Origin: Amphiscolops sp. MND2022
Lineage: Eukaryota
Reading direction: 5' to 3'
Assembly (NCBI GenBank): GCA_964187785.1
Contig: OZ076409.1
Location: 14,324,001 to 14,388,000, forward strand
Length of the DNA: 64,000 nt
Part shown: in pieces, positions 6,253 to 64,000 of the stretch
Numbering within the stretch: position 1 is the stretch's first letter
Layout of the letters: each line of letters starts with the position of its first letter
Made by a program: the position numbers and the translations under genes
The notes under the pieces: generated by a model
The model's database searches: none
The model's input: only the letters and a program-made list of their open reading frames with translations
What the model was told of the DNA's origin: nothing

Positions 6253-6357
6253 TTCATTTGTAGTTGGTTTGGTTATTTCTTTCATTTTAAACTTCAAAAG
6301 ATTGGTAATTAGCTGATCAATTAAACAATTAGGGACGAATTGTCGCCTTTTCAAAAT

Positions 6358-40114: not shown

Positions 40115-40314
40115 NNNNNNNNNNNNNNNNNNNNNNNNNNNNNNNNNNNNNNNNNNNNNNNNNNNNNNNNNNNNNNNNNNNNNNNNNNNNNNNNNNNNNN
40201 NNNNNNNNNNNNNNNNNNNNNNNNNNNNNNNNNNNNNNNNNNNNNNNNNNNNNNNNNNNNNNNNNNNNNNNNNNNNNNNNNNNNNNNNNNNNNNNNNNNN
40301 NNNNNNNNNNNNNN
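40115..40314. other. Assembly gap (200 N)
   Basis: Run of N; sequence on the two sides need not be truly adjacent. Confidence 1.
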
Positions 40315-41980
40315 ACCATAATCCAGGCTTTGCTGGAATACAAGGACGTTGTACCTTGGTATGTTTTCCATGTATTTAAGATGCTTGTTCCAAAAAGTTT
40401 GAAGAAACACTGAGATTATTTGCTTCGGTCACTGAGGGATTTTCGGAAGTTTTTCAAAACTTCAATTTCGGAAACTTTCAACCCTGATGGCTAGTTTTTG
40501 ATCAATCGTGAATAGGAATTTGTCTTGATACTTGTACGAATATCCCCACCTGCGAATCTGATATTGAATCCGGTGACTTTCATCTCTTTGAATATGACAG
40601 GCAATCTCCTTGACTCAAAAAACTGCCATTTGAGTCGAATCACAAATGGATTTATCAAAGAAGAGAAAAAGAAGACGAAGAAGAAGAAAATGAAGAAAGG
40701 TGCGATTTTGACCGGCTACAAAAGGAGAGAAATTTGATCGCAGCTGCGGAGAAGCTAAGTGCCTACAAAAAAGGGATGTATGACTTAAGGGGGGACACAT
40801 GAAATGAATGGCCGTGGTTATAGCTATTCCGTGGTTATAACCTACAGAGGCCATTGATAAACAACAAAAATAAACGGAAGAAAAACACGTAAAAGAACAT
40901 TCAAATAATGAAAGAACAACCAAATAAAAACAACCCATCCTTTACACTCAAAATTTCCTATCAATATTTCGTTAAAAATTTTCTAAATGTGACTGAGAGG
41001 TTTTGGAGCATTATATGGAAACTCATTGCTGAGAATGAAAATATCCACAAAAAACTATTATGAAAAAGCATTTATTTTCTGAAACAAGTGCCGATCAACA
41101 ACAGATTACGTGTTTCGGTTTTTGCTTTTGATCTCGTGTTTCCTGGAAAATGGAACCGCTTGTAATTATGCTTGCCAACCTCTTCTCAAAAACAATTCTC
41201 TAGATTCAAGAGATTACTTGAAACTTCATTTTAAAATCAATTTCAATTTTTCAATTTAATGTTACACTTTATTTCAGACAGAAAATGATTTATTCAACCC
41301 ATCTGGGAACAAATTGTTCGAATGCCATTCAAGGTTGATTGCCGATTTTGAATTTGAAATACTTTTCGAAGTCAGTTTATGAGACAAGAAATAGCTTTGA
41401 TTGTCTCAAAAAAAACAGATGATTCGTGAAATTATATTAATTTGTGAATGCCGAACAATTTTTGTAATTATGATCTAGAATTGGAATAAACAAACTCCAA
41501 AAAGACAGAGAATACATTCTAAAATCTGCGCTGTTTTTATCAGCAAATTTGTTTAAATTACATAAGGAAATCGAGTAAATTTGGTGCTAATTTTTGCAAT
41601 TTATATGGTAAATTGCAAAAATTAGGTCGAAGACCTGGGTAATTATCATCTCAAATTGAAATCAAAATGACATTAAAAAAAACATTTTTTTTTCAAATTT
41701 GAAATCAGCAGTTCTAATGTAAAAAACATTGGAGTGACATAAAAATCAAAAAACCCCTCTGTAGCTGCTTCAGAAAACGCGTTTCCGGATTGCGCCCTTG
41801 GAAGCCAATATGATAATGTGTGATTCTGATGCGAGTGCTTTTAGCATGAATAGCCAACAGGTGAAATCGAATTTTGAAAAACTTCTCACATCTTTACCTG
41901 CGCACTATGATCACACTATAATCATACTTTGACAATCGTTTTGACCCAAGTTCATACTATGACAGTATAAATCACGATAT

Positions 41981-42355
41981 TTAGTCAGCGCTTTTCCATT
42001 AAGGAAAAAAGCCCGACTGTTACAGTGAATACTTTTTGTCAGTCTTACTCTTTTTGTCCTCTTTTTGTGTGCACAGTGCACTTTTACCATAGGTACTTAG
42101 TACTGAATTTTGAACGCATCCAAAGCCCCTAACATGAAATACAAAACCATTACAGAGTAGAAAGGCCCCCTTTTTCTCTTACCTGGCACTATCGGACTCT
42201 CCCATTTTTTCGGTTAATGAGACTTTTTCAAAACAATTTTAATGTCTCCAAAGGCTCCATCCTTCAATTTTTGATATTTTACAACAGAATGGATGGTAAA
42301 AAAATTCCTTAAGTGCTACCCTTTTACATTTTTTGGTAATATGAGACTGTTTAAG
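41981..42355 (+). mobile_element. HINE/DINE-1-like 5' partial copy
   Basis: TTAGTCAGCGC...CCCGACT 5' end plus GGCACTAT.GGACT modules. Confidence 0.5.
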
Positions 42356-45172: not shown

Positions 45173-45918
45173 TGTAACGGCAAGCTCTCTCCATTGCCGC
45201 TGCTCCGTCATAGAGATGGAGGAACCTATGACATGGGTATTTGCCCGGGACAGGCGCCCATAGCCATAGGCCATTTTGCCTCCTGGGTAAGAGTTGTCCC
45301 GTCAGGAGGGGGTAGTGGTATCTTAAGGAGCCCTCGCCAGCTTTATCCAGTCTTAAATTGCAGTCAGTAACGTGAATTACGCTAAGTCTTCGAAACTACA
45401 GCTTAGACAGCCTTTAAAAACGTTCCAAAAGGAAGTATAAATGTAAATTTCGCCGTTCAGGGTGACTTGGGAAATAATATCTAAAACTGCCAAGTAGCCA
45501 TAAAATCACCACAAAGGGCAATAATCTCGTCGATAACAATTATTTGGCAATGTCCACATTCAGCTCGCAAGCTGGGGCACCTCAGGCACAGATTCGTGAA
45601 TTAGACGGAAAGACCCATCTTTACGGTTTTCGCTACCTAAGGTAGCATACTGCTAAAATCAAGGTTAGCACTTGTAAAAGAGTCTCTTTTCAGAGGTTTT
45701 TGCAGTCTCTGGCGTCTGTTGTGGCGGCTGCCCTTATGGTTTTCCTCGTTCTTGCTCTTTGTTGTCGAAGTACCTCCCAATTTCATAGAAACAGCGAAAA
45801 GAGCAATCACATTGAATTAGAATTGCTGCCTGTTTGACGTTTCAAAATTTTCCTGGACTCGTACAAAGTCTAAATTCCAATATTGGCTGAATCTGCTGTA
45901 CCAGAGGGTGCCGTTACA
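45173..45918 (-). mobile_element. Solo LTR of a related Gypsy family, in opposite orientation
   Basis: Perfect 10-bp terminal IR TGTAACGGCA...TGCCGTTACA; minus-strand start TGTAACGGCACCCTCTGGTACAGCA resembles the LTR start at 62443; 746 bp versus 730 bp. Confidence 0.8.
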
Positions 45919-46098
45919 ATCCTTATGAAACTAAGAAACGTAGAATGACTACATGTCTGCTACCGGTGACAATTGAGAGAACACATCGGAGAAGGCTTTC
46001 ACTAAAACGCTGCGATAAAAACTAATAATTGGTTAAATCATGCAATCAAATCACCGAAGATTATCAATTAACCATTATCGAGTACACAACTGAATTCT

Positions 46099-46257
46099 TA
46101 CCTCAGTCACTTTTTGATTGTTTTGTACCTAACAGGTAAGAATTTTTCGATCAAGTCTTCATCGCAAATTAGCAAACCTAATAATAGTGACAGGTAAATT
46201 AGCTTTTTTGATCAGATCCAATGAAGAGGAAGGAAAACAAACCGGGAACGGCCAATG
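46099..46257 (+). repeat. 159-bp direct repeat, left flank of Gypsy element
   Basis: Identical as read to 63173-63331; separated from the 5' LTR by ATGGGC. Confidence 0.97.
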
Positions 46258-46263
46258 ATGGGC

Positions 46264-46687
46264 TGTAACGGCAAGCTCTGGTACAGCAACATCAACCGAC
46301 ATGTTTAGAAAATTTTGTCAAAAATTCGTTCAAATTTGACGTGGCACTCAAACATGCTCAAGACGAAGTACCTGCCAGAAAAAGTACCCCAAAAAAGCAG
46401 AAATCGCCGCTCGCGACGAACAAGCACCGGAGACGACTACGAAGACGTCCCCAACGCATACAGAACACGGTATTGTGTCAATCTCTAGGAGATATCCAGT
46501 AAAGGAAACCAGTGTTCCAGATGTTCGCCTGAGTATCCCTGCGGTATCCTGTGTGGCAACTAGCGCTAGCGCTGGGAACCTGAGGTCAATTCTCATCAAA
46601 TGACTCTGAACTCTTGATTTCTTGTTGTATTTTTCGATGTGGTAGATTAATATGCTCGAGAGCTGTTGTTTAACATCTGTTTATTCA
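46264..46687 (+). repeat. 5' LTR, truncated (lacks last ~298 bp and PBS)
   Basis: Matches 62443-62874 with about 3 substitutions and one 8-bp indel; similarity stops abruptly after TTTATTCA. Confidence 0.93.
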
Positions 46688-47736
46688 CTCACCAAAGTCG
46701 AGAAAAGCTCTCTGACGTTTCGACTTCAGAAAAGCACATAAAAGCCGAAAAATTCCAAAACTACAGGACTGTCAGTGCCTTATACCTAACGGGCACGACC
46801 AATTGAGGGTTTATCCCAGTGCTACGGATAGTGGGGCAACACGTTAGTCCCATTTTGCCCGCCGTATCACTTCCTGAGGTGATCCTCTTGGTCAAATTGT
46901 GAAAAAAGTAGTCAAAAACAGTGTTTTTTCGTGTTCAACGTACATAGTGAGTCGAAGACTCAAATAAGCGCTCGCGCTTCAATTCGACCATTTTAGTGGC
47001 ATTGTGAGTGCCTGCTGGCATAGACTACCAAGTTTGGTGCCGATCTGTCTGATACTTGTCGAGAAAATAGAAAAAACGTGGAGCCCAAAAAGGGGTCCAA
47101 AAAGGCAGTTTTTTTCTTAATTTTTCCAAGTAACCCGGGCACCTTAGCCGACGGGTGGGGCTACATTGCAACCCACCATCGTAACTTGTGCTAGTTCCTA
47201 GAGAATTTGAACTTGCTAGCTCTTTCCCGTGGACCGCAACCTTGAAAAAGACGTGAAAAACAGTGTATTTCGGTACATAGTGGTACCGCACGTCTGTACC
47301 TAGGTGAAACTGTGTAGAAGGGGTGCAGCTCAAAACTGTGTTCATTTTCGTAAACCTACGTGTACCTAAGATCTGCTGGTCAATTTTGGGCTGGATACGG
47401 CGCTTCCCGTGCACACCCGAGCCTTTGGAGAGTTGTCGTGCGATTTTTGAAAAATCCAAAAGTTCCTTGAAATCCTTCCTGTGGGTGACTGGAGACTTTT
47501 TGCCCCAAACCAAGTTGATTTTCTAGCCCTGTGTGCTTGTGGAAAAACGCTGTGCAAATTTGAACAGCCTACGAGCTCTAGAACGTGTTTCGAAAAATCT
47601 AGAACGTTGAATACCATCAAAATTCTTAAGTGCTCACCGGGACGACCAAGGGATCAGCTTCGAATTGAAGACCCTGGTGCGTTCGGCGACCCAATTTGAG
47701 TCTTCTGAGTAATCGTGAGCGGTATCTCGATCGCTA

Positions 47737-50030
47737 TTGATAAACGCGTTGGCCACTGAACCGATGGCGGTGTCCCATACTGGTTCACAATCATGGGTCG
47801 CGATAGAGGGTTCGCGTTTTTCAGACGACATGTCTGACGAAGTCACTATCGAACAACAGCGAAAGGAGGAATTGGCCGCTATGGTTCCTCCCTCAGAGAA
47901 CTCCAGTGTTTCTGCAAATTCGCGTCGAACTGAGCAGTGGGTCGACGAAACCTGCCGCGATAGAGCTAATGAAGTGGAAGAGGGCTGGCCTAATTCGAAT
48001 ATGACCGATGAACTGGCGGCTGAGGAAGGGTGCTCGCGCGCACCCCCGGCTGGAGAAAGACAACTTGGCTCACAAACTGACATGGAGCAGGACCTCACTT
48101 ATGTGGAAGGCATGAGTTACGCGCGACAGCGGGGACTCGGGACCACTCGAGGACCTACCCGGGTCTGTGCCTACGGGAAGCACAAGAAGGTGCGACCACC
48201 TATACTACAGGTAGGCGAGCCACGTCAAGAGGTATCCCGTGTCAGGAGTATGACAGGCTCATTGGCCTCATTGCAACGGTCTTCAGTATACAAGGCAGCA
48301 CTATTGGATGCCCAAGCCGAAACCCAACGGGCCCTAGCAGGTCTGGCCAGCACTCGTGCTGAATGCAATGAGCAACACCTTGCCATCGTAGAGAACATTA
48401 AAGTGATGCAGACGACGATGCGTGAAGGCCTGCAGGTCAGTGATCAATTGCGCACCGCGCAGAATGTGCAAAATGCTCGAGTGGACACACTGGGTCACCG
48501 GATAGGAGAGATGAATGACACGTTGATGGCTCGCGAGCTGCGCGTGGAAACGCAGATCAACGACTTAAGCAATCAGATGCACACGGTACTCAATGCCATT
48601 GATGTCATGAGGCGTGAGAGGTCACTCCCGCGGCAGCCCAGTGCAAGTGGAGGCGTGCGGAATGGAGGTCCAGTCCGTATCTCGGAGCCGACGTGCCCGA
48701 GCGAGGTAGTGAAATCGGAACTGCCGAGCGCGCTAAAGCCTAGCACTTCCAGGCCGGCAGTGCCTGCGCCCCGGAAAGATGAAGGAGTAGCCGGAAATTT
48801 GGTGATAGCCACGCCTGAAGCAGAGCGCAAGCCTGCACGAGTGCAGATGAGGGGACATCACGACTCAGCAGAATCATCGATGCCTTCTGCAATCCAGAGT
48901 ACCACTCGAGATCAAGGCGTGGACCCGATGTCGACCATCTATCTTGATTCCTCGGTTGAAGTCGACCTATCTAACACCAAAGCAACCCTAGGCTCTCAAA
49001 CCGAGGGAGCAACGTTTGCAACTGCCCCCATTTCGATGTCAGGACCAGATTCCCTATACTGGCACTCCCTGTGCTAGCAGCACTCGTAAAAAGGACGAAA
49101 TCGCCGACCTGTCGATACAAGCCACTCTTGGTAGTCATGACAGGACGCGCGAGGGGGAGGCCAAGGCCGATGAAAGAGAAGCCATATCCCCCGAGCAGCT
49201 GAGATTCACGGCCGCCATATCAAAGGCGATGTCAAAAGAGTTAGCGCCCTTACTCGCCGGCAGAGACTTGGCTCAGGCGAGGCCCAATGTATATCGCGGG
49301 TCCAAAGACGGATCCATTGATGGGTGGATCCTTATTATGCAGAGATACCTGAAGAGAACACAAACCAAGGTCTCAGCCGAGGACCAGGCTTGGAGCATCA
49401 TCGGTCACCTTGAAGGTGAAGCCCGCAACTACATCATTAACAAAGCGGAATCCGAACGTGACACCCCCGAGAAAGTGTTCGAATTGTTATCCAGCCGCTT
49501 TGGCGCTGGAGGAAACCGTATGCAAGTGCGACAAACTTTCCAGAGCCGCATTCAACAAGAGAAAGAAGACTGGATGCAGTACTTAGACGCTCTAGAGGGT
49601 CTTCGGAGTCAAGGATTCCCACAAGAGGCAATCACCACCAAGCGCTATGAAATCCTCCAGCGCTTCATGGAAGGTGTACGAGACCCAGCGCTGAGGCGGG
49701 AGCTGGCCATAGTGTATGCCTCGGAAGTCTTCCTGACCGAGCCACCTACCGTGGAATCCCTCCGCTTCACCACCCGCCAATTGCAGCGCAACCGTCCAAA
49801 ACCTAACCAATTCCCTCAACCCTATGACCCCAGACTAGCAATGAGGTCTCGACCTCATCCCTTCGCGCCACTACCCCCCAACAAAATGGTGTTACCACAA
49901 GGAGTAATGCCTCCCCCACCTGCGAGTAATGCTCCCCCAATCAAGCAGCAGTGCAGCCTGCGGCACGCCTACCCGTTGGCGCGTGCTATAATTGCGGTCA
50001 AGCTGGGCATTTTGCCCGGGACTGTCCCAC
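47737..50030 (+). pseudogene. gag: Gypsy gag (frameshifted near 49030 and 49935)
   Basis: Coiled-coil-like N-terminal region; capsid-like YRGSKDGSIDGW...HLEGEARNY...FQSRIQQEKE...RFMEGVRD; CCHC knuckle CYNCGQAGHFARDC at ~49984-50025. Confidence 0.9.
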
Positions 50031-53000
50031 CCGCGATCAAGCTCGCAAACCAGTGGCAGCTCCTGAACCAGAAGGCGTGAAAGTCACTGCTGAAGACGTA
50101 ACTGATGGCGTGTTGGAGAGCTATCCAGGCATTCATCAGTGTGCGCACTGTGGAGTCTATGACCATGTGGATGTCCCCTGTAGTGAGCATTCTCAAGCTC
50201 CGAGGCCTAATGATGAATTGGCCTACAATCGATGGGCTGAAGTGGAATCCGCTGGTGTGGCCGCCCACACGGTACCCCTGGAAGATGATCGCGTATTAAT
50301 GCTACACCCAGCGGAGCCCCCAGCGTTTCACCCCCCACTGATAGTTACATGTGGGACAAAGCAGATTCAGACGTGCTTGGAGCCTACAACGTTCGATCCA
50401 CAAGGGAGAACGTTGATCTCGATTCATCTTATGCTGGCAGCCGAGCAGGTGCGTAGACCAACGTTAACCTTGGCGAAACTCTGGGTTGAGCTATCTGTCC
50501 TCTATAACCGGATGGAATTGCCCCGCCCAAAACAGTGGCACGTCCCTGGAGAGTCGGAGACCCTGACTACGTACTCGCCAGTACCAGTCTGTGCAACGAT
50601 GGACGGCGTGGCCGTGAAGTTCGAGGCCTGTGTGGTGGTAGATGTATTCCCACCCGGCTTATGCTTGGGACCTCAAGAGCTGAAATGCTATAATATCAAC
50701 CACCAAGAACCCACCGGGGAAGCGCGAATAGATGAGCGTGCGTCGCTCGTTGTCTCCTTTGTGGTGCCTCATGCGGCACCTGTCCCACTGCGAGGCCTGG
50801 TGGACACTGGTTCCGGAGTATCCATACTAACCTTCTCCGCCTTCAACCGAGTAGCTGCACGGACCAGAGCGGTCCTGAAACCCTATCAAATTGATTTGTA
50901 CGCTGCCAATGGGAAGACAATAAAGACTTTCGGGTTGGCTGAGCAGATACGCTTCCAGTTGGGAGGGTATGAACTCGAAACCAATTTCGTCGTGGTAGAT
51001 GACGCAATGGGCGTGGAGGACTTTCTGTTGGGTCGAAACTTCCTCCGTTCCTACCAAGTCTTGGTAGATCTAACCTCCATGAAGATAGTGGTGCGAGCAC
51101 CCGTGAAGCCCGTCTGGCATCATGCACACACCCAGGTAGGTGACGCTTCGTTAACTACCCCCATTACCCTGGACAGTGACCTAGTCCTACAGTCTTTCGA
51201 GCGTACAGTGGCAAAGGCCAAACTTGTCACCAACGCGCTTGAACCATTAATCTTCCAGACCGTTGCGCTTAACGCCTCGTTGTCTGATCCCTCATTGCAA
51301 AATACCATCTTTTTAGAGGACAGCGTGGCCACTGTCAGTGAGACAGGAACACTGTATGTGAGCCTGGTAAACCTCACCAGCAACCAGCAGCGTGTACGAT
51401 GTGGTGCCCACCTAGGCACGGTAGTGCCTGTGTCTCTAGTATACCAGGCTGTGCCCCAAAAGCTGGATGCTACTGTGGAAGCTGACCACAAAACTGAAGC
51501 CGACAACAGTCGAGCAAATTTTGTTTATAAAGTATACAGTGAAATGAATCTATCCACTGCTTCTGAGTTAACTTCTTCATCTGAATTTGAGTTTTTGTCT
51601 TCTACGGATCCAAGTGAAGCGGGGCTTTCGGAGCGCGAGATTCGCAAGCGCACCGATCCCGACCTATTGGCCCCGATCCCTGGGCCCGATTCTCAATTGC
51701 AAGAAGTCAAGAAACTCTGGGGCGCTAGCGCCTGCGAGTCCTTAGACAACATTCTTAACGAGTTTGATAACCTATTCATGAAACGCAAGGCGGATATTGG
51801 CCGCTGTACCATTGCTAAACACACCATAGAGGTAGAGCCTGAGGCTGTACCGCACCGTGTAGGTGCTCGGAGAATGTCCCCCGAAAAGGCTGAACGAGCC
51901 AACAAGGAGGTTCGGAGCTTATTGGCCTTAGGGATGATACAACCTTTACTGTCCCCATGGGCAAGTGGTATCGTAATGGTAAAAAAGAAAAGCGGGGAGT
52001 TACGCTTTTGCTGTGACTTCCGACCGCTGAATGAAGTAACCATTAAGGATGCCTACCCCCTGCCCCGTATCGATGAAAGCCTGGCGCGACTGGGCAATGC
52101 AAAGATCTACACCAGCATAGATCTTGCCTGGGCTTTCTGGCAAATTCCCTTGCGAAAGGCGGACCGCCACAAAACAGCCTTTGTCTGTGAGTTGGGACTC
52201 TTTGAATGGCGAAGAATGCCATTTGGCTTGTGCAATGCATCAGCCACCTTCCAGCGAGCAATAGCGCGAGCGCTGCAAAAAATAGTCAATCGCAAAGGCA
52301 GCATGGTCATGGCATACATCGACGACATAGTTATAGCAACTGAGACTGTGGAAGATCACATGGCGCGTTTGCGCGAGGTTTTTGAATGCCTCCGCGAAGC
52401 TGGCTTCAAGATGCGCGTAGCCAAATGCGACTTCATGAAACCAGAAATCAAATATCTGGGACGCGTGGTCTCAGCAGAAGGTGTCAAACCGGACCCGAAA
52501 GCTGTTGCCAAACTGCGCGATTGGGACATCCCCCGCAACAAAACTGAAATGCAAAGTTTCCTGGGATTCGCTAATTATTATCGTGAATTCATCCCGTGGC
52601 ATGCCAAGCTGGTGGCGCCCCTCCACGCCGTTACGGGACTGAATGCCATATTTGCATGGGGTCCTGACCAACAAAAAGCCTTCAACGAAATCAAGACAGC
52701 ATTAATCGAGGCGACTGCGCTCGCGCAGCCTAATTCCGAAGGAGAGTTTGTGCTGGACACCAATGCCAGCGCCGTTGCCATTTCCGGTATCCTACACCAG
52801 TGGCAAGGAGCTCCAGGAGAGCGACGCCTACGACCGATCATATACGGCAGCAAGAAACTGACCACCACCCAAGCCAAATATGGGGCACCCAAGCTGGAGA
52901 TGTTTGCTGCCTACTACTTCATGCTCAAGTACCACAGCTACCTTTGTCCCCGAAAGTTCACCCTGAGAGTCGACAACCAAGCCCTATCCTGGTTGAAAAC

Positions 53001-54078
53001 CTACTCCACGGACCAAGCATTGATTGGACGTTGGATTATGACACTGGACAGGTATCACTTTCGCGTGGAACACAGACCACGAACGCAACACCGCAATGCT
53101 GATGGCTTGAGCAAACGAACCAACGATTATCGATGCCGAGAACAGCAGCTTGCGCAGCTGCCAGCTACTGGAGAGCGTTGGAACTTCATCTCGGCCGAGG
53201 AATTCGACAACCTCCCCATAGCCACATGGTCCGACCTGCAAGGTCGAATCATTCCAAATCATCCTGACCTACCACCGCATCTGCAGAACTTGGAGCCTAA
53301 GGCTCCTGACCAGGCACTCCGTTTGCTTCGCCGTGTGCAACGAGCGAACAAGCGAAAACGACAGGCGAAGGCGCTAGCCGCGCCTTTACCGCCTCAGCCT
53401 CCACCCGTGCTACAGAAGCACGAGGACTTCTATCCAGACTATCCTGAAGACTGGATAGACGTCACCACTGAGGCGAGCGAGGATTACCTGCTGCCAACAC
53501 ATGCAGTAAATGTCCCCTCGCGCACCATCTATTCTGTGACGGGAACGAGTAACGCCATGCTACAGAACTCTCCTGGTGGCGTGTGCGAGTCGATCATGGC
53601 CCTCAAGGACATCGACACCGAGCTCCATGAACACACACATACCGTGCATGGGATCAAGGACTTGGTTTTAGCCCAAAACCGCGATGTCCATGTGCTAGCG
53701 CTGAAAAAGCTCGTGCAGTATGAATACCTAGATAACGATGTGTTTCCCGAGAACGTGCGTGAGTTCGCACGTAATTACTTCCGCCAGAAAAAGGATCTCT
53801 TGTTCATAAACAAGAATGATGTCCTTTGCGTGCAATACTCCCCCACCCAACGCCCACTGCACGAACGTCCGTGCATGATCATAATGCCTCAACTGTACCA
53901 GCACGAGATTTTGTTCCGCGCGCACGACGCAATGGGACACCGAGGTATCTCAAAAGTGGTAGCTCGAATTCAAGAGCGCCACACTTGGCCCGGCATACGG
54001 CGCAGTGTCGGTCGATACGTCGGCCAAGGCCTCACCTGCCAAAAAATACGTGACAAGCCTGGTGACGTACGATTCTAA
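49951..54078 (+). CDS. pol: Gypsy pol part 1: knuckle, pseudo-protease, protease, dUTPase-like beta domain, RT, RNase H, integrase Zn finger; ends at a premature stop
   Basis: LVDTGSG (50803) and LLGRNFL; SPWAS, LRFCCDFRPLN, MPFGLCNA, YIDD (52315); LDTNAS, VDNQAL, NADGLS; AHDAMGH...GLTC. Confidence 0.95.
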   Translation: MQPAARLPVGACYNCGQAGHFARDCPTRDQARKPVAAPEPEGVKVTAEDVTDGVLESYPGIHQCAHCGVYDHVDVPCSEHSQAPRPNDELAYNRWAEVESAGVAAHTVPLEDDRVLMLHPAEPPAFHPPLIVTCGTKQIQTCLEPTTFDPQGRTLISIHLMLAAEQVRRPTLTLAKLWVELSVLYNRMELPRPKQWHVPGESETLTTYSPVPVCATMDGVAVKFEACVVVDVFPPGLCLGPQELKCYNINHQEPTGEARIDERASLVVSFVVPHAAPVPLRGLVDTGSGVSILTFSAFNRVAARTRAVLKPYQIDLYAANGKTIKTFGLAEQIRFQLGGYELETNFVVVDDAMGVEDFLLGRNFLRSYQVLVDLTSMKIVVRAPVKPVWHHAHTQVGDASLTTPITLDSDLVLQSFERTVAKAKLVTNALEPLIFQTVALNASLSDPSLQNTIFLEDSVATVSETGTLYVSLVNLTSNQQRVRCGAHLGTVVPVSLVYQAVPQKLDATVEADHKTEADNSRANFVYKVYSEMNLSTASELTSSSEFEFLSSTDPSEAGLSEREIRKRTDPDLLAPIPGPDSQLQEVKKLWGASACESLDNILNEFDNLFMKRKADIGRCTIAKHTIEVEPEAVPHRVGARRMSPEKAERANKEVRSLLALGMIQPLLSPWASGIVMVKKKSGELRFCCDFRPLNEVTIKDAYPLPRIDESLARLGNAKIYTSIDLAWAFWQIPLRKADRHKTAFVCELGLFEWRRMPFGLCNASATFQRAIARALQKIVNRKGSMVMAYIDDIVIATETVEDHMARLREVFECLREAGFKMRVAKCDFMKPEIKYLGRVVSAEGVKPDPKAVAKLRDWDIPRNKTEMQSFLGFANYYREFIPWHAKLVAPLHAVTGLNAIFAWGPDQQKAFNEIKTALIEATALAQPNSEGEFVLDTNASAVAISGILHQWQGAPGERRLRPIIYGSKKLTTTQAKYGAPKLEMFAAYYFMLKYHSYLCPRKFTLRVDNQALSWLKTYSTDQALIGRWIMTLDRYHFRVEHRPRTQHRNADGLSKRTNDYRCREQQLAQLPATGERWNFISAEEFDNLPIATWSDLQGRIIPNHPDLPPHLQNLEPKAPDQALRLLRRVQRANKRKRQAKALAAPLPPQPPPVLQKHEDFYPDYPEDWIDVTTEASEDYLLPTHAVNVPSRTIYSVTGTSNAMLQNSPGGVCESIMALKDIDTELHEHTHTVHGIKDLVLAQNRDVHVLALKKLVQYEYLDNDVFPENVREFARNYFRQKKDLLFINKNDVLCVQYSPTQRPLHERPCMIIMPQLYQHEILFRAHDAMGHRGISKVVARIQERHTWPGIRRSVGRYVGQGLTCQKIRDKPGDVRF

Positions 54079-54790
54079 TTGAAAAACATTCAGAGTGGCT
54101 ACTTCAACGAGCTGGCCCAATATGACCACTTAAAAATCTGCTCCTCTGATAACAACAACACTGGCATTTTGGTCATCATCGACCATTTCTCTAAATTTGC
54201 AGAGGCAGTCCCTTGTAGTCATCATGACTATGACGCAGTGACCACCTCACGATTGCTGCTGCAGAAATGGTTTGCCCGCCACAGCACCCCCACTCGCATG
54301 CAAACAGACAATGCCCCCAACCTTACTGCTGAAGTCTCTAATGAGTTTCTAAAGGCAGCTCACGTCACTAAGGTGACCTCCACTGCCGGACATCCACGAA
54401 CTCAAGGCTTGGTGGAACGGCAAAACCGCACCCTCTTAACCTTGTTGCGAGTCTTTTGCTCACGTCGCATGCGCGACTGGGACCAGTGCTTAGATGAAGT
54501 AATCGGTGCCTATAATTCCACCAGGCACGCCACTACAGGCTTCTCGCCCTATATGTTAACAAGGGGTGTTGAGAATGCAATTCCCCTCACCTTTTTATAC
54601 CCTGAATTTGCAGCCAAGTCCTTTGATACGCATGAAGCATACGTGGATCATGTGTTGGCTCGCCAACAAGAAATTCACGACTTGGTCCGGCGCAACACGC
54701 ACCAAGCCCAATTGCGCCAAAAACTGAAATATGATCGTGCTATCCGAGCACGAGTTTACCAGCCGGGAGAGCTTGTCTGGGTTTTTGCCG
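54079..54790 (+). pseudogene. pol: Integrase catalytic core (in frame after TAA at 54076-54078)
   Basis: QYDHL, IIDHFSK, QTDNAP, GLVERQN (DDE triad), AYNST..HATTGFSPY. Confidence 0.93.
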
Positions 54791-54794
54791 CTAT

Positions 54795-57080
54795 GTGCCG
54801 CAAAAAGGCTCTCCCAAACTGATGCGCGCCTGGCGTGGCCCGCACAAAATAGTACAAGTCTTTCAAGAAGGACGTGTCTTTGTATTGGACACAGGCCAAA
54901 AGGTTCATTTTGAGCGCCTGAAACCTCATCATAGTGGGCCCCTTGAGCTCGCCACCGCGCAAGCGGACAGCGGCGAAATAGTGGTACTCATGGACCCTGA
55001 CCCTGAACATTCTGTTGAAGCAGTTGACGACGATAAGTCCCAGCCTTCATTTAAAACTGAACAACTACTTTCAGAAGCATCTGACGTATCCTTGCCTTCG
55101 CGCAAGCAACATTGGATGGATACCCGTCTGCGCACAAAGTTACGTGCTGGAGGCTCCCGCATGCACTACCAGCAATTCGACTACTCAACTTCGGGCACTG
55201 ACGACGAGTTGTCCGAAATCATGCTACCGATACCTCCTGATCCCGTTGATGCTGATCGCAGGGAGCCCGAACCCCAACTCCCTTCAGACCAATCAATATC
55301 ACCTGCCCATCATCTGCCTCAACTATTCTCCGACCATGAGCGCGCGCGCTCTCCGTCACCACGAATATCTTCTCCCGAAAAACAGCCCTCCTTACTGGGA
55401 ACATCGGCCCCACGACTGACAAATCCATCACTGACGAGTTTCCTCAACAACTATCCCATTTGGCCGGCCGCTCCTTCCCTTCCTCTGAAATCCGCCACTG
55501 AGGATGACGACGCTCAGTCCAATGTCCCTACTCTTCCCACAACATTGCCCGGAGCGGGGACCGCTCCTTCTTTCAAAAGGGGGAGGGGGAGACCACCCAA
55601 AACGCGAAAAAGGCTGGTCAGAGCGAAGGCAAGAACGAGGAAGAAAGAAACTACAACAACAATGCCGTCGGAAACAGCAATACCGACCGAGGCTTCCGAG
55701 GTCCCCCGATATCAACTGAGAAGCAGACGGCAGCCACGCTATAAGTGCGGGACCTGTGGGCTGCGAGACTGTGTTTGCTTGCTAGCCGTCAATGAGAACC
55801 GGAGGGTTCCCACTGGAGCCCGGGGAGTCCCTCCAGAGCGGGGAGAAAATCTAGTACATCGCCTTACGGTGAGAGCTGAAAAGACTTATTCCTCCCTGGA
55901 ACGACACGGAGACCATCCCGTGGATACTATCCTGGAGAAGTTATCACTACCTGGAGTAGCGAAGGCCCCATGTCCTCAATTCAAGGAGTGGACTAGCGAC
56001 GGGAAAGGGTTAGAGTTCACCCTCGCAACGGTGATGCCCCCAGTACCCAGCAATATTGCTTTTGGACCCTTCAACTTCGAGCGGGAGCCTGTGCAAATGG
56101 TCCGATGCATCACCGCTGATCTTCTCTGTGACAAATACGGAATTCACGTGGATCCGGGCGGAGTATACAGCCCAGCGCCGCACTGGTGGTTGCTGGTCAT
56201 TGCTCCACGAGTGGAGGCAATAGTGGAACCATTGCACCTGCTGTCCTGCTTGGAAGGTCTGAGGACCCTCACTACCGCGGACTTGATACTTTGCTTCCAC
56301 ATCATAGACTGGTATCGTGGCAAAGTGAAATTCGCGTGGTGGTTGGAGCTGATCATCACTTGTTTCCCCAATTATCCTCGCATTAGATTGCTGGACGAGT
56401 GGACTCATACTTTCGAGATTCCGCTTCCTCCGAAAGCCGTTTTGAGCACCCTAGACACATGGGTTAGGGCGGGCAGTGATAACCGAGCGATGCCACGCTC
56501 GGTATGGCAAGACCTGGCTGCAATCCAGGGGCGTACGCCCCGCGTATGCTTGCCTGTCGACAATGGGCCGGGGAGAGAGATTATCTACCCGGGAATCCTG
56601 CATCCAGCCCCAACAGAGCACCTCTCATATGATGTGACTGATTTTCTTCAAGTAAAAGGTGATATGGTGTTAGCGTGTCCCGCTGACCTAGAGACCAACT
56701 CAGCTGCCCTACGGTACGTGCTACGAGAATGCGGCAAGGAGAACGTATTCTCCTTACGTCCTAAGGTGGGGGACATTCTCACCATTCCTCCCGATATCAA
56801 CCCAAACCCCAATCAGAGTATTCACTTGCTAATAATCAGAGCAAACCAGCGTGCGCCGCTGCTCGCAGACGACTACCTACGTTGTATGACACACTTGATA
56901 CAGCGTTTGATGGAGAAGGGATCCACGAGGGTCCACCTACCTATACTGGATCCAGAGCGACCCGCCCTCTCATTGGTAAACTTATACCATACCCTAACGA
57001 ATTTGCTGGAGGGCACTGGCATTCACGTAGTGCTGCATAACCGCGTGTATGTGTCCATTCTGAACATAGGGCTGGAGTAG
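54795..57080 (+). CDS. Integrase C-terminal extension: GPY/F motif, AT-hook, Cys cluster, two putative macrodomains
   Basis: Adding one T to the run at 54782-54786 joins VWVFCRYVPQKGSPKLMRAWRGPHKIV (GPY/F-like); KRGRGRPPK; CGTCGLRDCVC; two TARG1-like segments. Confidence 0.8.
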   Translation: MPQKGSPKLMRAWRGPHKIVQVFQEGRVFVLDTGQKVHFERLKPHHSGPLELATAQADSGEIVVLMDPDPEHSVEAVDDDKSQPSFKTEQLLSEASDVSLPSRKQHWMDTRLRTKLRAGGSRMHYQQFDYSTSGTDDELSEIMLPIPPDPVDADRREPEPQLPSDQSISPAHHLPQLFSDHERARSPSPRISSPEKQPSLLGTSAPRLTNPSLTSFLNNYPIWPAAPSLPLKSATEDDDAQSNVPTLPTTLPGAGTAPSFKRGRGRPPKTRKRLVRAKARTRKKETTTTMPSETAIPTEASEVPRYQLRSRRQPRYKCGTCGLRDCVCLLAVNENRRVPTGARGVPPERGENLVHRLTVRAEKTYSSLERHGDHPVDTILEKLSLPGVAKAPCPQFKEWTSDGKGLEFTLATVMPPVPSNIAFGPFNFEREPVQMVRCITADLLCDKYGIHVDPGGVYSPAPHWWLLVIAPRVEAIVEPLHLLSCLEGLRTLTTADLILCFHIIDWYRGKVKFAWWLELIITCFPNYPRIRLLDEWTHTFEIPLPPKAVLSTLDTWVRAGSDNRAMPRSVWQDLAAIQGRTPRVCLPVDNGPGREIIYPGILHPAPTEHLSYDVTDFLQVKGDMVLACPADLETNSAALRYVLRECGKENVFSLRPKVGDILTIPPDINPNPNQSIHLLIIRANQRAPLLADDYLRCMTHLIQRLMEKGSTRVHLPILDPERPALSLVNLYHTLTNLLEGTGIHVVLHNRVYVSILNIGLE

Positions 57081-57373
57081 CCCGCCCAAAACGCTTTTTG
57101 TTGCCCCCCCCCCTTTATTTAATTTACCCACCCCGATAATCGTTATACCTGGGAGGAAGTGTTAAACCATCCCATGAAATGATTACATTGTAACGTAGCG
57201 TTAGATAACTTCTATCTTTGTGTTCTAATTAGTTAGTTGAACTACAATTTAAACTTGTTGCGGTTCCCCTATGGAACCATCTTTGTACTATTGCTGCTGA
57301 GTGATGAGCCTTAAGCTCTCCCCACAATGCACTTGGTAAGCCTAACGGTAATCCTTTTTAGACCTATGATATA

Positions 57374-60300
57374 ATGGCTTATTACCCCAACAACACGGTA
57401 CCTATTTCCACGACGGGACCTCACGCCAAGAGGACTCAAGAATTGCCTGCGCGAGCGCAGAGGACTAATCAAGTCCAATACGTAGAAGAGCGATTGAGGA
57501 ACGGCCTCTCACCGTTAGCGGTAGCGGGCGTGGCCGCCCTACTCACCCAACTAGACACAATGCAGACGCTGCCTGGCGTATCCGTGTCTCTGGTGACGGA
57601 AGTAGCCGGTTACCGTCGCACCCTAACCTGCCAAAACAATGCGTGGGATGGCCACGATCTGACGCACCAGTTCCTGGATGAACGTTCTACCACAATGCTC
57701 GGGCCCAGCCAGGGCACGAGATTCGAGCAAGAAGCCTCACTGTGTATGGTGCCTGCCAGCGTAGCAACAATGCCTCCTCCTCAGATGGTCGCACTGCCCC
57801 CACCAGCGCCAAATCCAGTACCAATGACGCCAACTTATTCCGGTTCGCCTGCCTTTGGAACCTCATATCGAGCACCACACATGGTACTGCAAACCACTAC
57901 TAATGCACCAGTCTCTGATCGGGAGCCCTCGGGGTCCCGGTTACCACCCATACCCAACCCAGAGCTGACGGGAAGGAGTACCAGCGAACAGGCCGTAATT
58001 GTGGCCTTGCAAGCAGTGGCGAACTATCCCAACTCCACCGATTTCGTCCGTGCCGTGGAGCAGAGAATCCCTGGATTAGCCACGTATCTGAAAGCTGCTG
58101 CTCAGCCCGCGGGCTGTGACCCTCCTGCTCCCCTAGTCGAAACGGCATCTATGGATATGGAAATTGTCGCTGGACCGAGTAACAGCGCAAGCGCTGCCTC
58201 TGGCACACGAGAAGAAGCGGGGAGAAAGCGGCTAACTGAAGAAACTGTCTCAGTTACCCCAGCTGGCTCGGTAACCGAGAGCCCAACTAGTCGTCCCCCT
58301 CCCGACAAGCGCGCTGATGTACCTCGGCCCCAGCTGAAGAGTGTGGTCATCCCTAGGCCCCCGTACCGGGTAGGTCATCTAGGCCGAAGCGCACCTCAAA
58401 TGTCTTTAGCAGACGCGATCGAACAGTATGGAGATCCCGATGCAGGCTCGGAAGTGAGCTCTGTGCCCTCGGGCACCAATCCAATAGATATGTCCCTGGA
58501 GATACCTGAGACGGTGGAGGAAGCCCATCCTCCAGCCTTTCTCCCTCCATCTGACGACGTATCCGGCTCAGTAGTCACCAATGATAGCAAACGCATTTGG
58601 ATGGCGGCTGAGCATCTTTACCCCAGTCAATGCGCTATCAAGAAAAGGACCCCTCCAACTGAAACGGAGCAAAAGGAGATCAACCGGACCACGATACCGG
58701 CGCAAGTCACGCGTTCGCTCCGCCCCCGTGACGCAGACATGTCGGAGCAGGCTTGGGAACAGCGTGCTCGAGAGCAGCTGCCTATGACAACCAACGATTA
58801 CATGGCGCCCCTGCAACACAATATCACTGAGCAATTCCCCGCACGGTATGTGTTGCGAGAAGGTGAGACATGGGAGGCGAACGCCCGTTACGCTCGCAAC
58901 CTGAGATCTTTGAAACCCCTATTGAAAGCAGCTCTGCAGCGTGCGCGCTACTGCATGGCAGTTGATTCTACTTGCCGAAGTGACCTCCCTATTGACAATT
59001 TAATGCCTGACGTGCTGGTGCTAACTATGCCCCTGTCTCGCTTCGCTGAGGTCGCTGAGATGGTTGGAGCCATATACGATCCAAACTTAAGAGAATCACA
59101 AAAGGAACCACCCCCACAGCGAGTGATCTTTGCCAATCTTCTGGATCACATGGCTTGCGAAGGATTGCTGCATGACCTGGACGCCATAATGTCCAATGTC
59201 CGACGACTTGGAGACATTGCCGCCCTGGTAAACGAGGTGGTCGGTGCAATGGAACGTGCCGCAGGGATCCTTCGGGGTCGTCTGGGAGCGCTCGCGCTCT
59301 TTGTATCCCCACCAGGATTCATGTATTGGCCACGAAGTCTGCAGCAGTTCGTCTACATTCTGCTGGAGGTGTGCAAGGCGCGCAGAGTCGAATTCACCAT
59401 CTGTGCACCGAACTTGCGCGTGGACCGAGAGGACCTGCGCCCAGATACCTTATCGTATCCAGCCTTCTTTGCCGCCGTATCTAGAGCGCTTGTGGCTATA
59501 GAACGCTCGGGAAACGCCCAGCTAACCATTGACGATGCTATCCTCTATGATTATGGAATGCGGATGGGCAGACTGGCCTTTGACCTTGACGGCAACCGCA
59601 TTGCCCGAGAATCTAATGTAACCGAACGAGAGGCTGTTCGCCGGTACAATTGGCTAGTGCGAAGAGATAAAGAAATCCCAGTGCGCGCAGAATTAGCCGA
59701 CCTGACAAAACAAATTGGTGCATGGCCTGCAGCGCGCACCGTCGAGAGAACAATTCCTCAGATCCACTTCGCATTGGGAATCGAGCCCGTGAAGCTGCCT
59801 GTAGGGCTGCGGTGTATCGTAGCAATGGAAGCAACAAACCTGAAAGCAGAAGTCGACGCCGCAGCCACAACTTATGCTTATTGGTACCAGACTAGGTTTG
59901 CCACCAGAACTCTGGCAGAAGTAGCTCGAGAGCTCAATTGTCCATTGGAAGCCTTCTGTACCAGTCTTGGTCTAGGATGGAACCTAGAGGTACTAACTTC
60001 TGAGTTCTCGCTGACCCGTACGCAAACGGACAAGCTGCTAGAAACAATTGGAGAGGCAACCGTCGGAGAAATACTAGCGCTCGCGCTAGCGATGGGCCCA
60101 ACCAAGTTTGTAGCCGGACCACTGGCCTTGTTAGCCGACATGGTAATTGCCTGCGACCTCACCGTGTTCTACAGCTACTTGGTCCTGGCACAAGGACAAC
60201 TACGCAGTCTGACCCGTTGGGGACACTTGATGACTTCCGAGGACCAGCAAGACTATTCCGCCCAACTGGAACGCATGCGTGCGTCAATCCAGCACTGGCT

Positions 60301-61681
60301 ATACTCCACCCTGGTGTTCGCCTCCGGCCTATTCGTGGGCGTAGACCAATCCCAACCACTACATAACTCCGACCAGCAGATCTCACGGGAAACGGCAGGA
60401 TTCCCCATGCCGCAGCAGATTGCAGATCTCACCCTGGCTGAAGTAGAAGATTTTGTGGCAGCAATGGCTCCTGTCTTGGCCCCTATCTTTGGCGCAGTGG
60501 GCGTGTGCCGATACCCAACTAAACCATTGGCAACAGCCGTCCAAGTGCACATGGTCTCCTTTAGTACCTACCTGCGGGGCCGGCCCTCACTGACGTATCC
60601 AAGGGTAATACATGCAGTGCTGAGTGGTGAGGTGCCGCATGGGTACACGACCATAAAATCCGAAAGAGAGTTGGAGGAGAACTTGATGGGCTTGCTGCGC
60701 GCGCGCACCAGGAAAGCATGTCCTCTACCCCGAGAGCATGGACCTGTGAACTGGTATTCCGCACCTCTCAGTTTGGAAGGGGTCCCCTTTAGGTTCCCCT
60801 GGAGTCAAGAGTTCATGAGGAAGGCGATTCGCGCCAGCACTAGTGCTGGTCCACCTGTGGACCCTTTGTACTGCTTCAAATGCATCGCCTTCCCAAACCG
60901 CTATTGGAAGGAGCCGTTAGGTTGGCCCAGGGCAAAACCCGTTGGACGCGCCCCAGAGGTGTTCAACCGCCAAATCCAACACTTGGAGTCAGCCCAGATC
61001 CCAGGATGGATTGAAGGCGCTGCTCAGATCAGGCAGAGGAATCTCCAATCCCGCGTTATCCCATTCCCCAGGAAGTCGGCATGGAAGCCTACGGGAAAGA
61101 TGACCATGTCTGGAGATATGTCCATCGTCCAGCATGATGAGATAAATTCCGTGTTGGGCTCAACAGAACGAGCGAGATGGGAAGAGTACTGTCTGGAGTT
61201 GGAGATTGCACGCTTCCCTAAATGGAAGAGAGCTTGCGAGCTCTGGAGCCAATCTGGATGGATCTCACGCCGTGTAGCACTAGCGGTAGAAGGTAGAGCA
61301 GAGATAGCGAGACAACAGGCGTTCGCGCCTACCATGCTCGCACCAACGATGGCGATGTCTTTGGATCGGCCCATCTCTCAACCGATCACCATTAACCTTC
61401 CAACCCATAACTTGGAGCCAGACCCAGTTGGCCCGTCTTCGTCGCGAACGAGCCCTCAGTCCTCGCAGCAGCAGTCCGGAGAGCACACTGCCGAATTGAC
61501 TCCCAATGCAGCACTAGTGCAGCCTATTGCCGAGTTGTCGCTCCCCGAAAGTCCGTCGGACTCTGAAACAGTTACCACAGAAGTTTCTCCCCGACGTCGA
61601 GCGTCAGTGTCGACTGATAACCCAGAACAGAACCTAGATGATTCCACTGAAGAGCGGACCCGACGCAGTTCAGCTCAATAA
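57374..61681 (+). CDS. 1435-aa extra ORF in env position; putative degenerate SGNH/GDSL-fold domain plus hydrophobic helical region
   Basis: Uninterrupted 4.3-kb ATG-initiated ORF between pol and the PPT; AVDS, MP, NLLD, SPPG and DLRPD blocks are spaced like SGNH blocks; no signal peptide. Confidence 0.9.
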   Translation: MAYYPNNTVPISTTGPHAKRTQELPARAQRTNQVQYVEERLRNGLSPLAVAGVAALLTQLDTMQTLPGVSVSLVTEVAGYRRTLTCQNNAWDGHDLTHQFLDERSTTMLGPSQGTRFEQEASLCMVPASVATMPPPQMVALPPPAPNPVPMTPTYSGSPAFGTSYRAPHMVLQTTTNAPVSDREPSGSRLPPIPNPELTGRSTSEQAVIVALQAVANYPNSTDFVRAVEQRIPGLATYLKAAAQPAGCDPPAPLVETASMDMEIVAGPSNSASAASGTREEAGRKRLTEETVSVTPAGSVTESPTSRPPPDKRADVPRPQLKSVVIPRPPYRVGHLGRSAPQMSLADAIEQYGDPDAGSEVSSVPSGTNPIDMSLEIPETVEEAHPPAFLPPSDDVSGSVVTNDSKRIWMAAEHLYPSQCAIKKRTPPTETEQKEINRTTIPAQVTRSLRPRDADMSEQAWEQRAREQLPMTTNDYMAPLQHNITEQFPARYVLREGETWEANARYARNLRSLKPLLKAALQRARYCMAVDSTCRSDLPIDNLMPDVLVLTMPLSRFAEVAEMVGAIYDPNLRESQKEPPPQRVIFANLLDHMACEGLLHDLDAIMSNVRRLGDIAALVNEVVGAMERAAGILRGRLGALALFVSPPGFMYWPRSLQQFVYILLEVCKARRVEFTICAPNLRVDREDLRPDTLSYPAFFAAVSRALVAIERSGNAQLTIDDAILYDYGMRMGRLAFDLDGNRIARESNVTEREAVRRYNWLVRRDKEIPVRAELADLTKQIGAWPAARTVERTIPQIHFALGIEPVKLPVGLRCIVAMEATNLKAEVDAAATTYAYWYQTRFATRTLAEVARELNCPLEAFCTSLGLGWNLEVLTSEFSLTRTQTDKLLETIGEATVGEILALALAMGPTKFVAGPLALLADMVIACDLTVFYSYLVLAQGQLRSLTRWGHLMTSEDQQDYSAQLERMRASIQHWLYSTLVFASGLFVGVDQSQPLHNSDQQISRETAGFPMPQQIADLTLAEVEDFVAAMAPVLAPIFGAVGVCRYPTKPLATAVQVHMVSFSTYLRGRPSLTYPRVIHAVLSGEVPHGYTTIKSERELEENLMGLLRARTRKACPLPREHGPVNWYSAPLSLEGVPFRFPWSQEFMRKAIRASTSAGPPVDPLYCFKCIAFPNRYWKEPLGWPRAKPVGRAPEVFNRQIQHLESAQIPGWIEGAAQIRQRNLQSRVIPFPRKSAWKPTGKMTMSGDMSIVQHDEINSVLGSTERARWEEYCLELEIARFPKWKRACELWSQSGWISRRVALAVEGRAEIARQQAFAPTMLAPTMAMSLDRPISQPITINLPTHNLEPDPVGPSSSRTSPQSSQQQSGEHTAELTPNAALVQPIAELSLPESPSDSETVTTEVSPRRRASVSTDNPEQNLDDSTEERTRRSSAQ

Positions 61682-62425
61682 ACCCAGCCGCTAATGGGAG
61701 CGTTCGCGCTCCCTATACCCTCATAAACTGCCAACAAACAGTGCCTCAAAACTTTTCATCCAGAACGGTGCTACAGTACAAAGTGCAATTTTTGTTCTTA
61801 GTTATGGTTATATAATTAGTGTACCATTAGTGTTGCACTGGGTGTACGGCCAATAGAGTACGCCTGCCCCAGTGGCTTGAGTGACCAAGCAGAAAGAAAA
61901 GAAAACTATTGTTCAAAAAAACTATCATTTTTGTTGTGCACCGTTCGCGGTGTTTTTGAGTTGTCACAATCAAAAGAAGTCTTATCCCTCTTGATTGCGT
62001 TTCTTTCTAGTCTAGTGTTCTTCATCAATCTGGTTGTTCACCGTAAGAGCCCCCAAGCTCTAAAAAAGTTTTTAATCGCCTGAAATGAACTGAAGACTTG
62101 TAGTCTCAAATGGTAAGGAAAAGAAATTTTAGCTGACTTTGGTCGCAAAAAGGTTTTTACACAAGTTGACTGCCCAAACGAATTTTAACCGGCTGAAAAC
62201 TGTAGCTCTCGAGCTGGTGCTAAAACCTCGTTCATGTTTTGTACGAATAGCTAGGCAGTAAGTTCTTTTTTTTTTCTCTCGTAAAAAAACTGCAAAGTCG
62301 ACCAAAATTGTTGCCGAAAAACAAGGACTCGTCCTTGTTCCCCGATGTGTGGATGATGGTTCCCAGCAGTCACTGTGATGCAGTTCCCAGACGATCCAGA
62401 CGCCGCTTGCCAGGGACGACAAGCC

Positions 62426-62442
62426 AGGAGCCTGGGGAGTGA
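62426..62442 (+). promoter_or_regulatory. Polypurine tract
   Basis: AGGAGCCTGGGGAGTGA directly before the 3' LTR TGTAACGG. Confidence 0.7.
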
Positions 62443-63172
62443 TGTAACGGCAAGCTCTGGTACAGCAACATCAACCGACATGTTTAGAAAATTTTGTCAA
62501 AAATTCGTTCAAATTTGACGTGGCACTCAAACATGCTCAAGACGAAGTACCTGCCAGAAAAAGTACCCCAAAAAAGCAGAAATCGCCGCTCGCGACGAAC
62601 AAGCACCGGAGACGACTACGAAGACGTCCCCAACGCATACAGAACACGGTATTGTGTCAATCTCTAGGAGATATCCATTACTACAGTAAAGGAAACCAGT
62701 GTTCCAGATGTTCGCCTGAGTATCCCTGTGGTATCATGTGTGGCAACTAGCGCTAGCGCTGGGAACCTGAGGTCAATTCTCATCAAATGACTCTGAACTC
62801 TTGATTTCTTGTTGTATTTTTCGATGTGGTAGATTAATATGCTCGAGAGATGTTGTTTAACATCTGTTTATTCAATTTGGCGATTTTATCAGATTCTCCA
62901 ATATTACGGTTCAACCTTCATCGATTTTCAGCCCAATTTTTAAAGGCTAGTTGAGCAGTGGTCTTGAGTCTTGCAAGATGCCTGTTACTTTTAGCAGTTA
63001 CAGACTAGGACCAGGCCAGAGAGCGTCCTACGAGACGGTTCCCCCACCTTGGGACTGGCTCCTTCGGAGGAAAAATGAGCTAGGGCCGCGGAGATCTAGG
63101 TCCCAGATTATATTCGCTGTTCTAGTTCCTCCACTCTACGTTGCGGTTCAAGCGCCAGCGCTTATCGTTACA
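62443..63172 (+). repeat. 3' LTR, full length (730 bp)
   Basis: TGTAACG...CGTTACA terminal inverted repeat; first 432 bp match the 5' LTR. Confidence 0.93.
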
Positions 63173-63331
63173 TACCTCAGTCACTTTTTGATTGTTTTGT
63201 ACCTAACAGGTAAGAATTTTTCGATCAAGTCTTCATCGCAAATTAGCAAACCTAATAATAGTGACAGGTAAATTAGCTTTTTTGATCAGATCCAATGAAG
63301 AGGAAGGAAAACAAACCGGGAACGGCCAATG
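63173..63331 (+). repeat. 159-bp direct repeat, right flank of Gypsy element
   Basis: Starts at the base immediately after the LTR CA; matches 46099-46257. Confidence 0.97.
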
Positions 63332-64000
63332 TCGGCGCCCCGCTCAAGGTGCAAAAAATTAGAGTTCTTTAAGCATGTAAAAGGACACTATAAATAAAAG
63401 TTTTTTATTCTTACAGTGCAAAAAACCCGAAGTACTCGGAAACCACTTTTTGCCCAACTGGAAGCAATAAAACCCCCGAAAATGTTTTTTTTCTTCGGAA
63501 AATGTCACATAGAGCTCAAAACTTTAAGGAGTCTTCTGTGTTCGCAAAACGGTTCGTTTCTAGTAGAAATCGGAGGCTTCGATAAAATCAAATTAGGGAA
63601 AAGTCGTATAGTACCGGATATAGCGTGCTGGTTCACCTAATTTTAAGACGAAAAATAATCATGTTGAAAAATCTCACAATTCCGAAATGTGTAGAAAGGG
63701 GGCACTTTGGGCTTTTTGAAAATCCAGTTTGTTGCAAAATATCAAAAATTGAAGGGTGACTTTTGGAGACATTGAAAAAGTTTGGAAAAAATGTTTCACA
63801 ATGCCGAAAAAAATTGAAAGGGTCTCGTCCATTTAGCATTGTCCGGATTTGCAAATGCACCAAAAAGTTCCTGGCTGAAGCAGGGACTCGAACCGAAATC
63901 GCTGGGTATCCCCTAAACCGGTTTATCTCTGTACCAAAAAGTGGTGCATAGAGGGTGAGCTCTGTTGTCTGGAGGGGAAAAAAGAAAAAACTAACCACTG
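63311..64000 (-). mobile_element. HINE/DINE-1-like copy running off the window
   Basis: ACAAACCGGGAACGGCCAATGTCGGCGCC terminus and the family's internal modules. Confidence 0.6.

Follow-up and report, generated by a model that had tools for sequence, protein, structure and literature searches.

A 159-bp host duplication around a Gypsy-like retrotransposon in Amphiscolops sp. MND2022: probable one-ended integration finished by host repair

Introduction

How does a long terminal repeat (LTR) retrotransposon come to lie between two 159-bp copies of its own host target? Gypsy integrases usually produce target site duplications (TSDs) of 4-6 bp. The element described here, a 16.9-kb Gypsy-like LTR element with TG...CA ends (46264-63172), instead has an exact 159-bp direct repeat at its two sides. 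It lies in a 64,000-nt stretch of the Amphiscolops sp. MND2022 genome (assembly GCA_964187785.1, contig OZ076409.1, positions 14,324,001 to 14,388,000 of the forward strand); we call this whole stretch the window, and all coordinates refer to it. On balance, we favour one-ended integration finished by host repair as the explanation for the duplication, and the locus is probably the result of a rare integration accident.

The duplicated segment and its junctions

The features on which the argument turns are the following:

46099-46257 (+): left (derived) copy of the 159-bp host segment, ending 22 nt inside the terminus of a dispersed repeat
46258-46263 (+): 6-nt junction insert ATGGGC, read directly from the sequence
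63173-63331 (+): right copy of the 159-bp host segment, the original one, directly adjoining the LTR CA
63310-63339 (+): intact terminus of the dispersed repeat family, with further copies at 32057 (+) and 12212 (-)
63330-63336 (+): proposed priming site TGTCGGC, lying where the duplication ends and resembling the LTR terminus TGTAACGGC

The two segments are identical across all 159 nt (BLAST E 8e-78), with a leftward extension of 0 nt. Within the 64-kb window, none of the segment's 14-mers recurs outside the two copies, and the segment is the sole common 18-mer diagonal between 40320-46263 and 63173-64000. The element meets its two copies differently; on the right, the LTR end CGTTACA (63172) directly adjoins the start of the 159-bp copy, and on the left the order is 159-bp copy, ATGGGC and then TGTAACG (46264). 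Both the equality of the segments and the make-up of the two junctions had been reported in the initial annotation, and both read as claimed. No short TSD was found at the element, as its flanks agree in register at one base at most for lengths of 2-8.

A neighbouring repeat reveals which copy came first. The final 22 nt of the segment are the beginning of a dispersed-repeat terminus, located at 63310, 32057 and 12212. Searching for this terminus returned four matches including the left 159-bp copy, a number reached by 0 of 100 shuffles. In all three independent repeat copies, the right 159-bp copy included, the terminus continues as GTCGGC.C. The right copy is thus the original target and the left copy is cut within the motif, which supports what the initial annotation had said of the right side. 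The sequence across this end point, GGCCAATGTCGGCGCC, occurs once exactly (63324-63339) and once with three mismatches (32071). HINEs and related Helentron-derived repeats are characterised by subterminal inverted repeats, a 3' hairpin, a TT target and a link to Helentrons. What the right flank displays is the terminus of a dispersed repeat family, common to three independent copies; it is at most a candidate HINE, and folding of the terminus gave nothing consistent.

The duplication stops where host TGTCGGC (63330) best matches the LTR start TGTAACGGC. We scored this resemblance anchored at the LTR end with one gap allowed, a measure set after the junction was seen. The site scores 7, with a runner-up of 5 in 63173-63974, and scores of 7 are seen at 0.077% of positions in host DNA and in 0.7% of windows of +/-4 nt. 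When the LTR terminus was replaced by alternative 12-mers, a score of 7 at the breakpoint was reached by 37 of 4000 starting in TG, 27 of 1642 with the same GC content and 60 of 2094 starting in TGT. The chance of such a resemblance at the end point is hence 0.7-3%, a post hoc figure, and the homology would count as moderate evidence for priming.

The 6-nt insert can be read as ATG, repeating the preceding 3 nt, plus GGC, the target bases 63334-63336. It can alternatively be read as an inverted copy (5/6) of the adjoining GCCAAT. A template search for ATGGGC gave just 9-mers at least 1.8 kb off and two nearby 7-mers, which we judged to be chance, and a hairpin at the breakpoint was unsupported (z 0.48).

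A model of one-ended integration

During one-ended integration of avian sarcoma leukosis virus (ASLV) and human immunodeficiency virus (HIV), host DNA close by serves as template for priming by the free 3' end, usually where there is short homology. The primed end may append more than one piece before it is joined by recombination, and the resulting duplication measures hundreds to thousands of bp and lies on one side of the first junction (accessible text of PMC5041404). The Amphiscolops locus resembles this in structure, in polarity and in the coincidence of its end point with an LTR-like site, all of which are read directly. A normal end abutting the duplication, a trait of one-ended integration, is found at the CA junction 63172/63173.

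We propose four steps. First, the right (U5) LTR end would have been linked by integrase to the top strand immediately ahead of 63173, where the CA junction is now seen. Second, the left (U3) end would have stayed uninserted, its free 3' end annealing about 157 nt further on at TGTCGGC, where the duplication is observed to end, and priming there. Third, in line with the ASLV/HIV model, a host polymerase would have extended the primed end along the target as far back as the integration nick, and the new DNA would have been joined to the left host arm. As the stretch from nick to priming site is copied, the segment would now be present on both sides of the element. Fourth, an extra slip or abortive priming may have left the few added junction bases. 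The enzymes, the order of the steps and the origin of the added bases belong to this proposal. The initial annotation had suggested either aberrant integration or a family-specific mechanism, an interpretation borne out in part. Aberrant integration with the right side as original target is supported by the continuation of the right copy into GTCGGC.C, by the clean right LTR end and by an opposite breakpoint at an LTR-end look-alike; the one hint of a family-specific mechanism is the neighbouring solo LTR.

Several points weigh against the model. Aberrant retroviral ends are often truncated, yet the left end of this element is intact. The microhomology score is post hoc and its seven matches require a 2-nt bulge, and a score of 3 (plain TGT overlap) already occurs in 18% of +/-2-nt windows. 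Eight nt (TGATGGGC) lie between the ideal homology joint and the LTR, although simple priming predicts no added bases. Finally, the structure is read from the assembled sequence.

The element and its relatives

The element itself consists of the following parts:

46264-46687 (+): 5' LTR, truncated, 424 bp, TG end intact, final 298 bp missing
46688-47718 (+): leader after the LTR break
47719-57080 (+): gag-pol, with zinc knuckle, protease, reverse transcriptase (RT), RNase H and integrase in that order (Pfam)
57362-61681 (+): second long open reading frame (ORF), 1439 aa stop to stop (ORF list, Pfam)
62434-62442 (+): purine-rich tract GGGGAGTGA, resembling a polypurine tract (PPT), directly 5' of the 3' LTR
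62443-63172 (+): complete 3' LTR, 730 bp, TGTAACG...CGTTACA

The initial annotation did not note that the 5' LTR is incomplete, nor the breaks in gag-pol or the related solo LTR nearby. The 5' LTR corresponds to just positions 1-432 of the 730-bp 3' LTR, and its final 298 bp are absent. The two LTRs differ by three substitutions and one 8-bp gap, every one within the last 191 bp of the 5' LTR, and are 99.3% identical apart from that single gap. We rejected a true LTR length of 432 bp, since the 298-bp tail bears the terminal inverted repeat and shares homology with the solo LTR described below; the tail aligns to it with a score of 92 vs 24 +/- 3 (0 of 200 shuffles), and the preceding LTR interior does not align.

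Among the bases that follow the 5' LTR break (46687/46688) is TCACCAAA, which in inverted orientation matches the LTR's own continuation at 7 of 8 positions. No TGG-type primer-binding site was seen by eye directly past this break, the expected place being missing with the LTR cut at 46687. No clear homology was found between the leader (46688-47718) and the missing LTR tail. Within the leader, 46964-46982 is a 17/19 inverted match to the LTR subterminal palindrome at 63147-63165, which may be chance. The window contains no tRNA gene, and 45000-64000 gave no Rfam match.

Four lesions interrupt gag-pol: frameshifts near 49050, 49935 and 54790, and a stop at 54076-54078. None of 52 close relatives ends at any of these breaks and each break is spanned by 7-19 of them, so the breaks look private and the copy dead; a shared defective donor finds no support in the same count. 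The truncation of the 5' LTR and these four lesions are, we infer, damage separate from the integration and for the most part later. The 1439-aa ORF is still open although the gag-pol of the same element is broken four times. It matches no Pfam family, and its residues 480-1250 have no atlas match. The C-terminal 180 aa of the pol extension (56532-57077, +) are like small phage proteins by language-model features (0.90-0.91), and one cluster at 0.89 has Macro on 22% of its members, which is a lead only.

With Ty3/Gypsy elements (Metaviridae) the element shares TG...CA LTRs (62443-63172), a PPT-like tract before the 3' LTR (62434-62442), a CX2CX4HX4C knuckle and the protease-RT-RNase H-integrase order, the last identified by Pfam in the window's ORFs and in siblings P0135 and P0155. 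Its integrase has an ordinary zinc-binding plus core architecture. Its own are the length of 16.9 kb, the long C-terminal extension of pol and the 1439-aa second ORF of no known family. As the 4-6 bp TSD of the group is absent both at the main insertion and at the related solo LTR, we name it, from these sequence traits, a Gypsy-like LTR retrotransposon and no more than Gypsy-like. Troyka was rejected, as the element ends in TG...CA rather than CG...CG and has an LTR of 730 bp and a CX2CX4HX4C knuckle. Troyka elements have CG...CG ends, LTRs of 100-400 bp and a CX2CX8-10HX4C knuckle, none of which fit; a 3-bp TSD is shared under one possible reading of the solo LTR flanks (accessible text of Kojima 2025, PMC12440569).

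The family is a large one. The top pol matches are 93-97% identical, and the two best clusters comprise 381 and 693 ENA sequences; long sibling protein matches are mostly 96-97.5% identical, with one at 99.3%. Neither metagenome nor genome contigs contained a match to the first 24 nt of the LTR, and viral contigs contained none to a degenerate form of it. Scans with protein sequences confirmed no relative among viral contigs or genome contigs. From metagenome contigs we recovered 30 loci out of 135 candidates (1.0-11 kb, 32-62% identity). By blastn, none of the 30 matches the LTR; 7 longer loci were also checked for an internal repeat and none has one, so these loci yielded no sibling TSD. Elsewhere in the window, 31701-31943 (+) is an isolated fragment akin to the pol C-terminal extension of sister families, with 70-77% identity to P0019 and P0020.

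The neighbouring solo LTR

A second insertion of the lineage lies 180 bp to the left (upstream) of the duplication:

45173-45918 (-): related solo LTR, 746 bp, TGTAACGGC at both ends, recognised by homology to the 3' LTR tail

Between the start of its + strand and the LTR start of the main element, 16 nt (TGTAACGGCAAGCTCT) are exactly alike. It lacks a 4-6 bp TSD, and its flanks can be read in two ways. The first is a 3-bp repeat, ATC/ATC, with a chance of 2.2%. The second is a 9/10 repeat (45161-45170 and 45919-45928) with one copy abutting the LTR and a 2-nt spacer, for which simulations give a post hoc chance of 0.06-0.3%. At the end of this repeat the target has TGAAAC, by eye a look-alike of TGTAAC.

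Other features of the window

Further away, 3205-4137 and 5320-6252 are 933-bp inverted repeats, 99.7% identical and 1182 bp apart; TTCATTTG occurs at 3205 and again at 6253. Judged by its sequence, this unit looks like a young non-autonomous DNA transposon. The window also holds a tandem array of 17-bp units (6357-6729, about 22 copies, 96% matches) and a diverged direct duplication (19077-22491 and 24445-27797, 90-93%, about 5.3 kb apart).

Alternative explanations

Could the same structure have arisen from two insertions rather than one? Two elements of the same family, inserted about 164 bp apart on different haplotypes, might have recombined in vivo through their shared sequence, leaving a hybrid with the distal insertion's left flank and the proximal insertion's right flank. 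On this view the duplication measures 164/165 bp and includes a TC vs ATG allelic difference, a 'pseudo-TSD', models of which are discussed in the accessible text of PMC5488345. ATGGGC does align with the target TCGGC with its final three bases in place, and the four LTR differences are all confined to the final 191 bp of the 424 (a post hoc chance of about 0.04). The related solo LTR 180 bp off would also indicate repeated use of the spot, and the family, with its clusters of 381 and 693 sequences, is large. However, this requires two insertions within about 165 bp, which is rare, as well as a complex junction mutation. Nor does it account for the likeness between the end point and the LTR terminus. 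The LTRs, moreover, are 99.3% identical bar one gap, compared with 96-97.5% for most of the long sibling protein matches. We therefore consider such recombination improbable.

Perhaps the duplication is not an accident but a habit. The Gypsy-like lineage might routinely complete one end by integrase and have the other captured by the host at an LTR-end look-alike, making long and variable duplications (from about 10 to 160 bp) with short spacers its normal product. Neither of the lineage's two insertions in the window has a 4-6 bp TSD. The solo LTR has the 9/10 repeat with one abutting copy and a 2-nt spacer (chance 0.06-0.3%), TGAAAC at the repeat end resembles TGTAAC by eye, and ATGAT is present at both repaired-looking junctions. 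Yet the case is built on two insertions and a post hoc statistic. A 3-bp TSD at a locally periodic site, or LTR-LTR recombination and ageing, would explain the flanks of the solo LTR equally well, and the integrase architecture is ordinary. A regular habit of this kind, and a lineage-wide mechanism behind it, both appear unlikely to us.

A similarly small chance attaches to an assembly chimera, in which the assembly fused two haplotypes or loci by way of the element or of the 159-bp segment, giving an arrangement that no single molecule carries. In favour of this, the 159-bp copies are 100% identical while the LTRs differ at four places, and the element is a 17-kb high-copy repeat. Nevertheless, 0/159 vs 3-4/424 differences is not a significant contrast (Fisher p 0.57-0.58), and the nearest gap, a 200-N scaffold gap at 40115-40314, is 5.8 kb from the left copy. 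A mis-join alone would presumably create neither the 6-nt insert nor the LTR-like end point.

Least likely of all, by a little, is a normal insertion whose left junction later broke, the host end being extended by 159 nt on an empty homologue or sister and rejoined by microhomology-mediated end joining; this yields the same final structure, accounts for the junction insert and the microhomology, and has a parallel in the second repair-type lesion 424 bp off in the 5' LTR (with its 7/8 inverted near-copy, by eye), but the break must fall exactly at the LTR terminus with the terminal TG kept, and at a single locus the outcome cannot be told from that of one-ended integration.

Precedents and significance

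One-ended integration, our preferred explanation, has precedents among retroviruses. Of 451 putative HERV-K TSDs, eight are longer than 10 bp and six of these measure 61-450 bp; among the long ones, one has 2 spacer nt and one belongs to a truncated provirus, and single-copy pre-integration alleles were confirmed for the 111- and 250-bp cases (accessible text of Kahyo et al. 2017, PMC5488345). The HERV-K (HML-2) cases share with ours an LTR element between near-identical host duplications. They differ in that ours is a Gypsy-like retrotransposon with a 6-nt spacer and an LTR-end look-alike, and in that a pre-integration allele has been shown for HERV-K only. Aberrant HIV-1 and ASLV integration likewise has one normal, integrase-made end and another joined by the host, usually at short homology (accessible text of Varadarajan et al. 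2016, PMC5041404). Those events were provoked in cell culture, through drugs, through mutations in integrase or through a mutated DNA end, and many had a truncated aberrant end (same source), whereas the present one is natural, found in a genome assembly, and has its terminal TG intact.

Outside retroviruses, somatic insertions of opus, Tabor and mdg1 in Drosophila have median TSDs of 23-26 bp, with caveats (accessible text of PMC8090852). The literature we searched, which omitted most subscription papers and supplements, gave no Gypsy duplication longer than 100 bp, so that absence is not shown; the accessible part of PMC12312487 holds nothing on long LTR TSDs. Given the 61-450 bp HERV-K duplications and the long HIV/ASLV ones, a 159-bp duplication is less surprising than it first seemed, and we suggest treating it as a further example of an already recognised type of event, one-ended integration as in retroviruses.

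Taken as a single event, the locus would offer a clean, naturally occurring non-retroviral case of the integration accident known in detail from ASLV and HIV. Its significance is then modest, although it indicates that LTR insertions can duplicate host DNA well past TSD length. If the lineage did so regularly, this would amount to a natural route that is half integrase and half repair, and one overlooked by TSD-based annotation. The hundreds of related copies in public assemblies could show how often host repair completes the integration of retrotransposons in the germ line.

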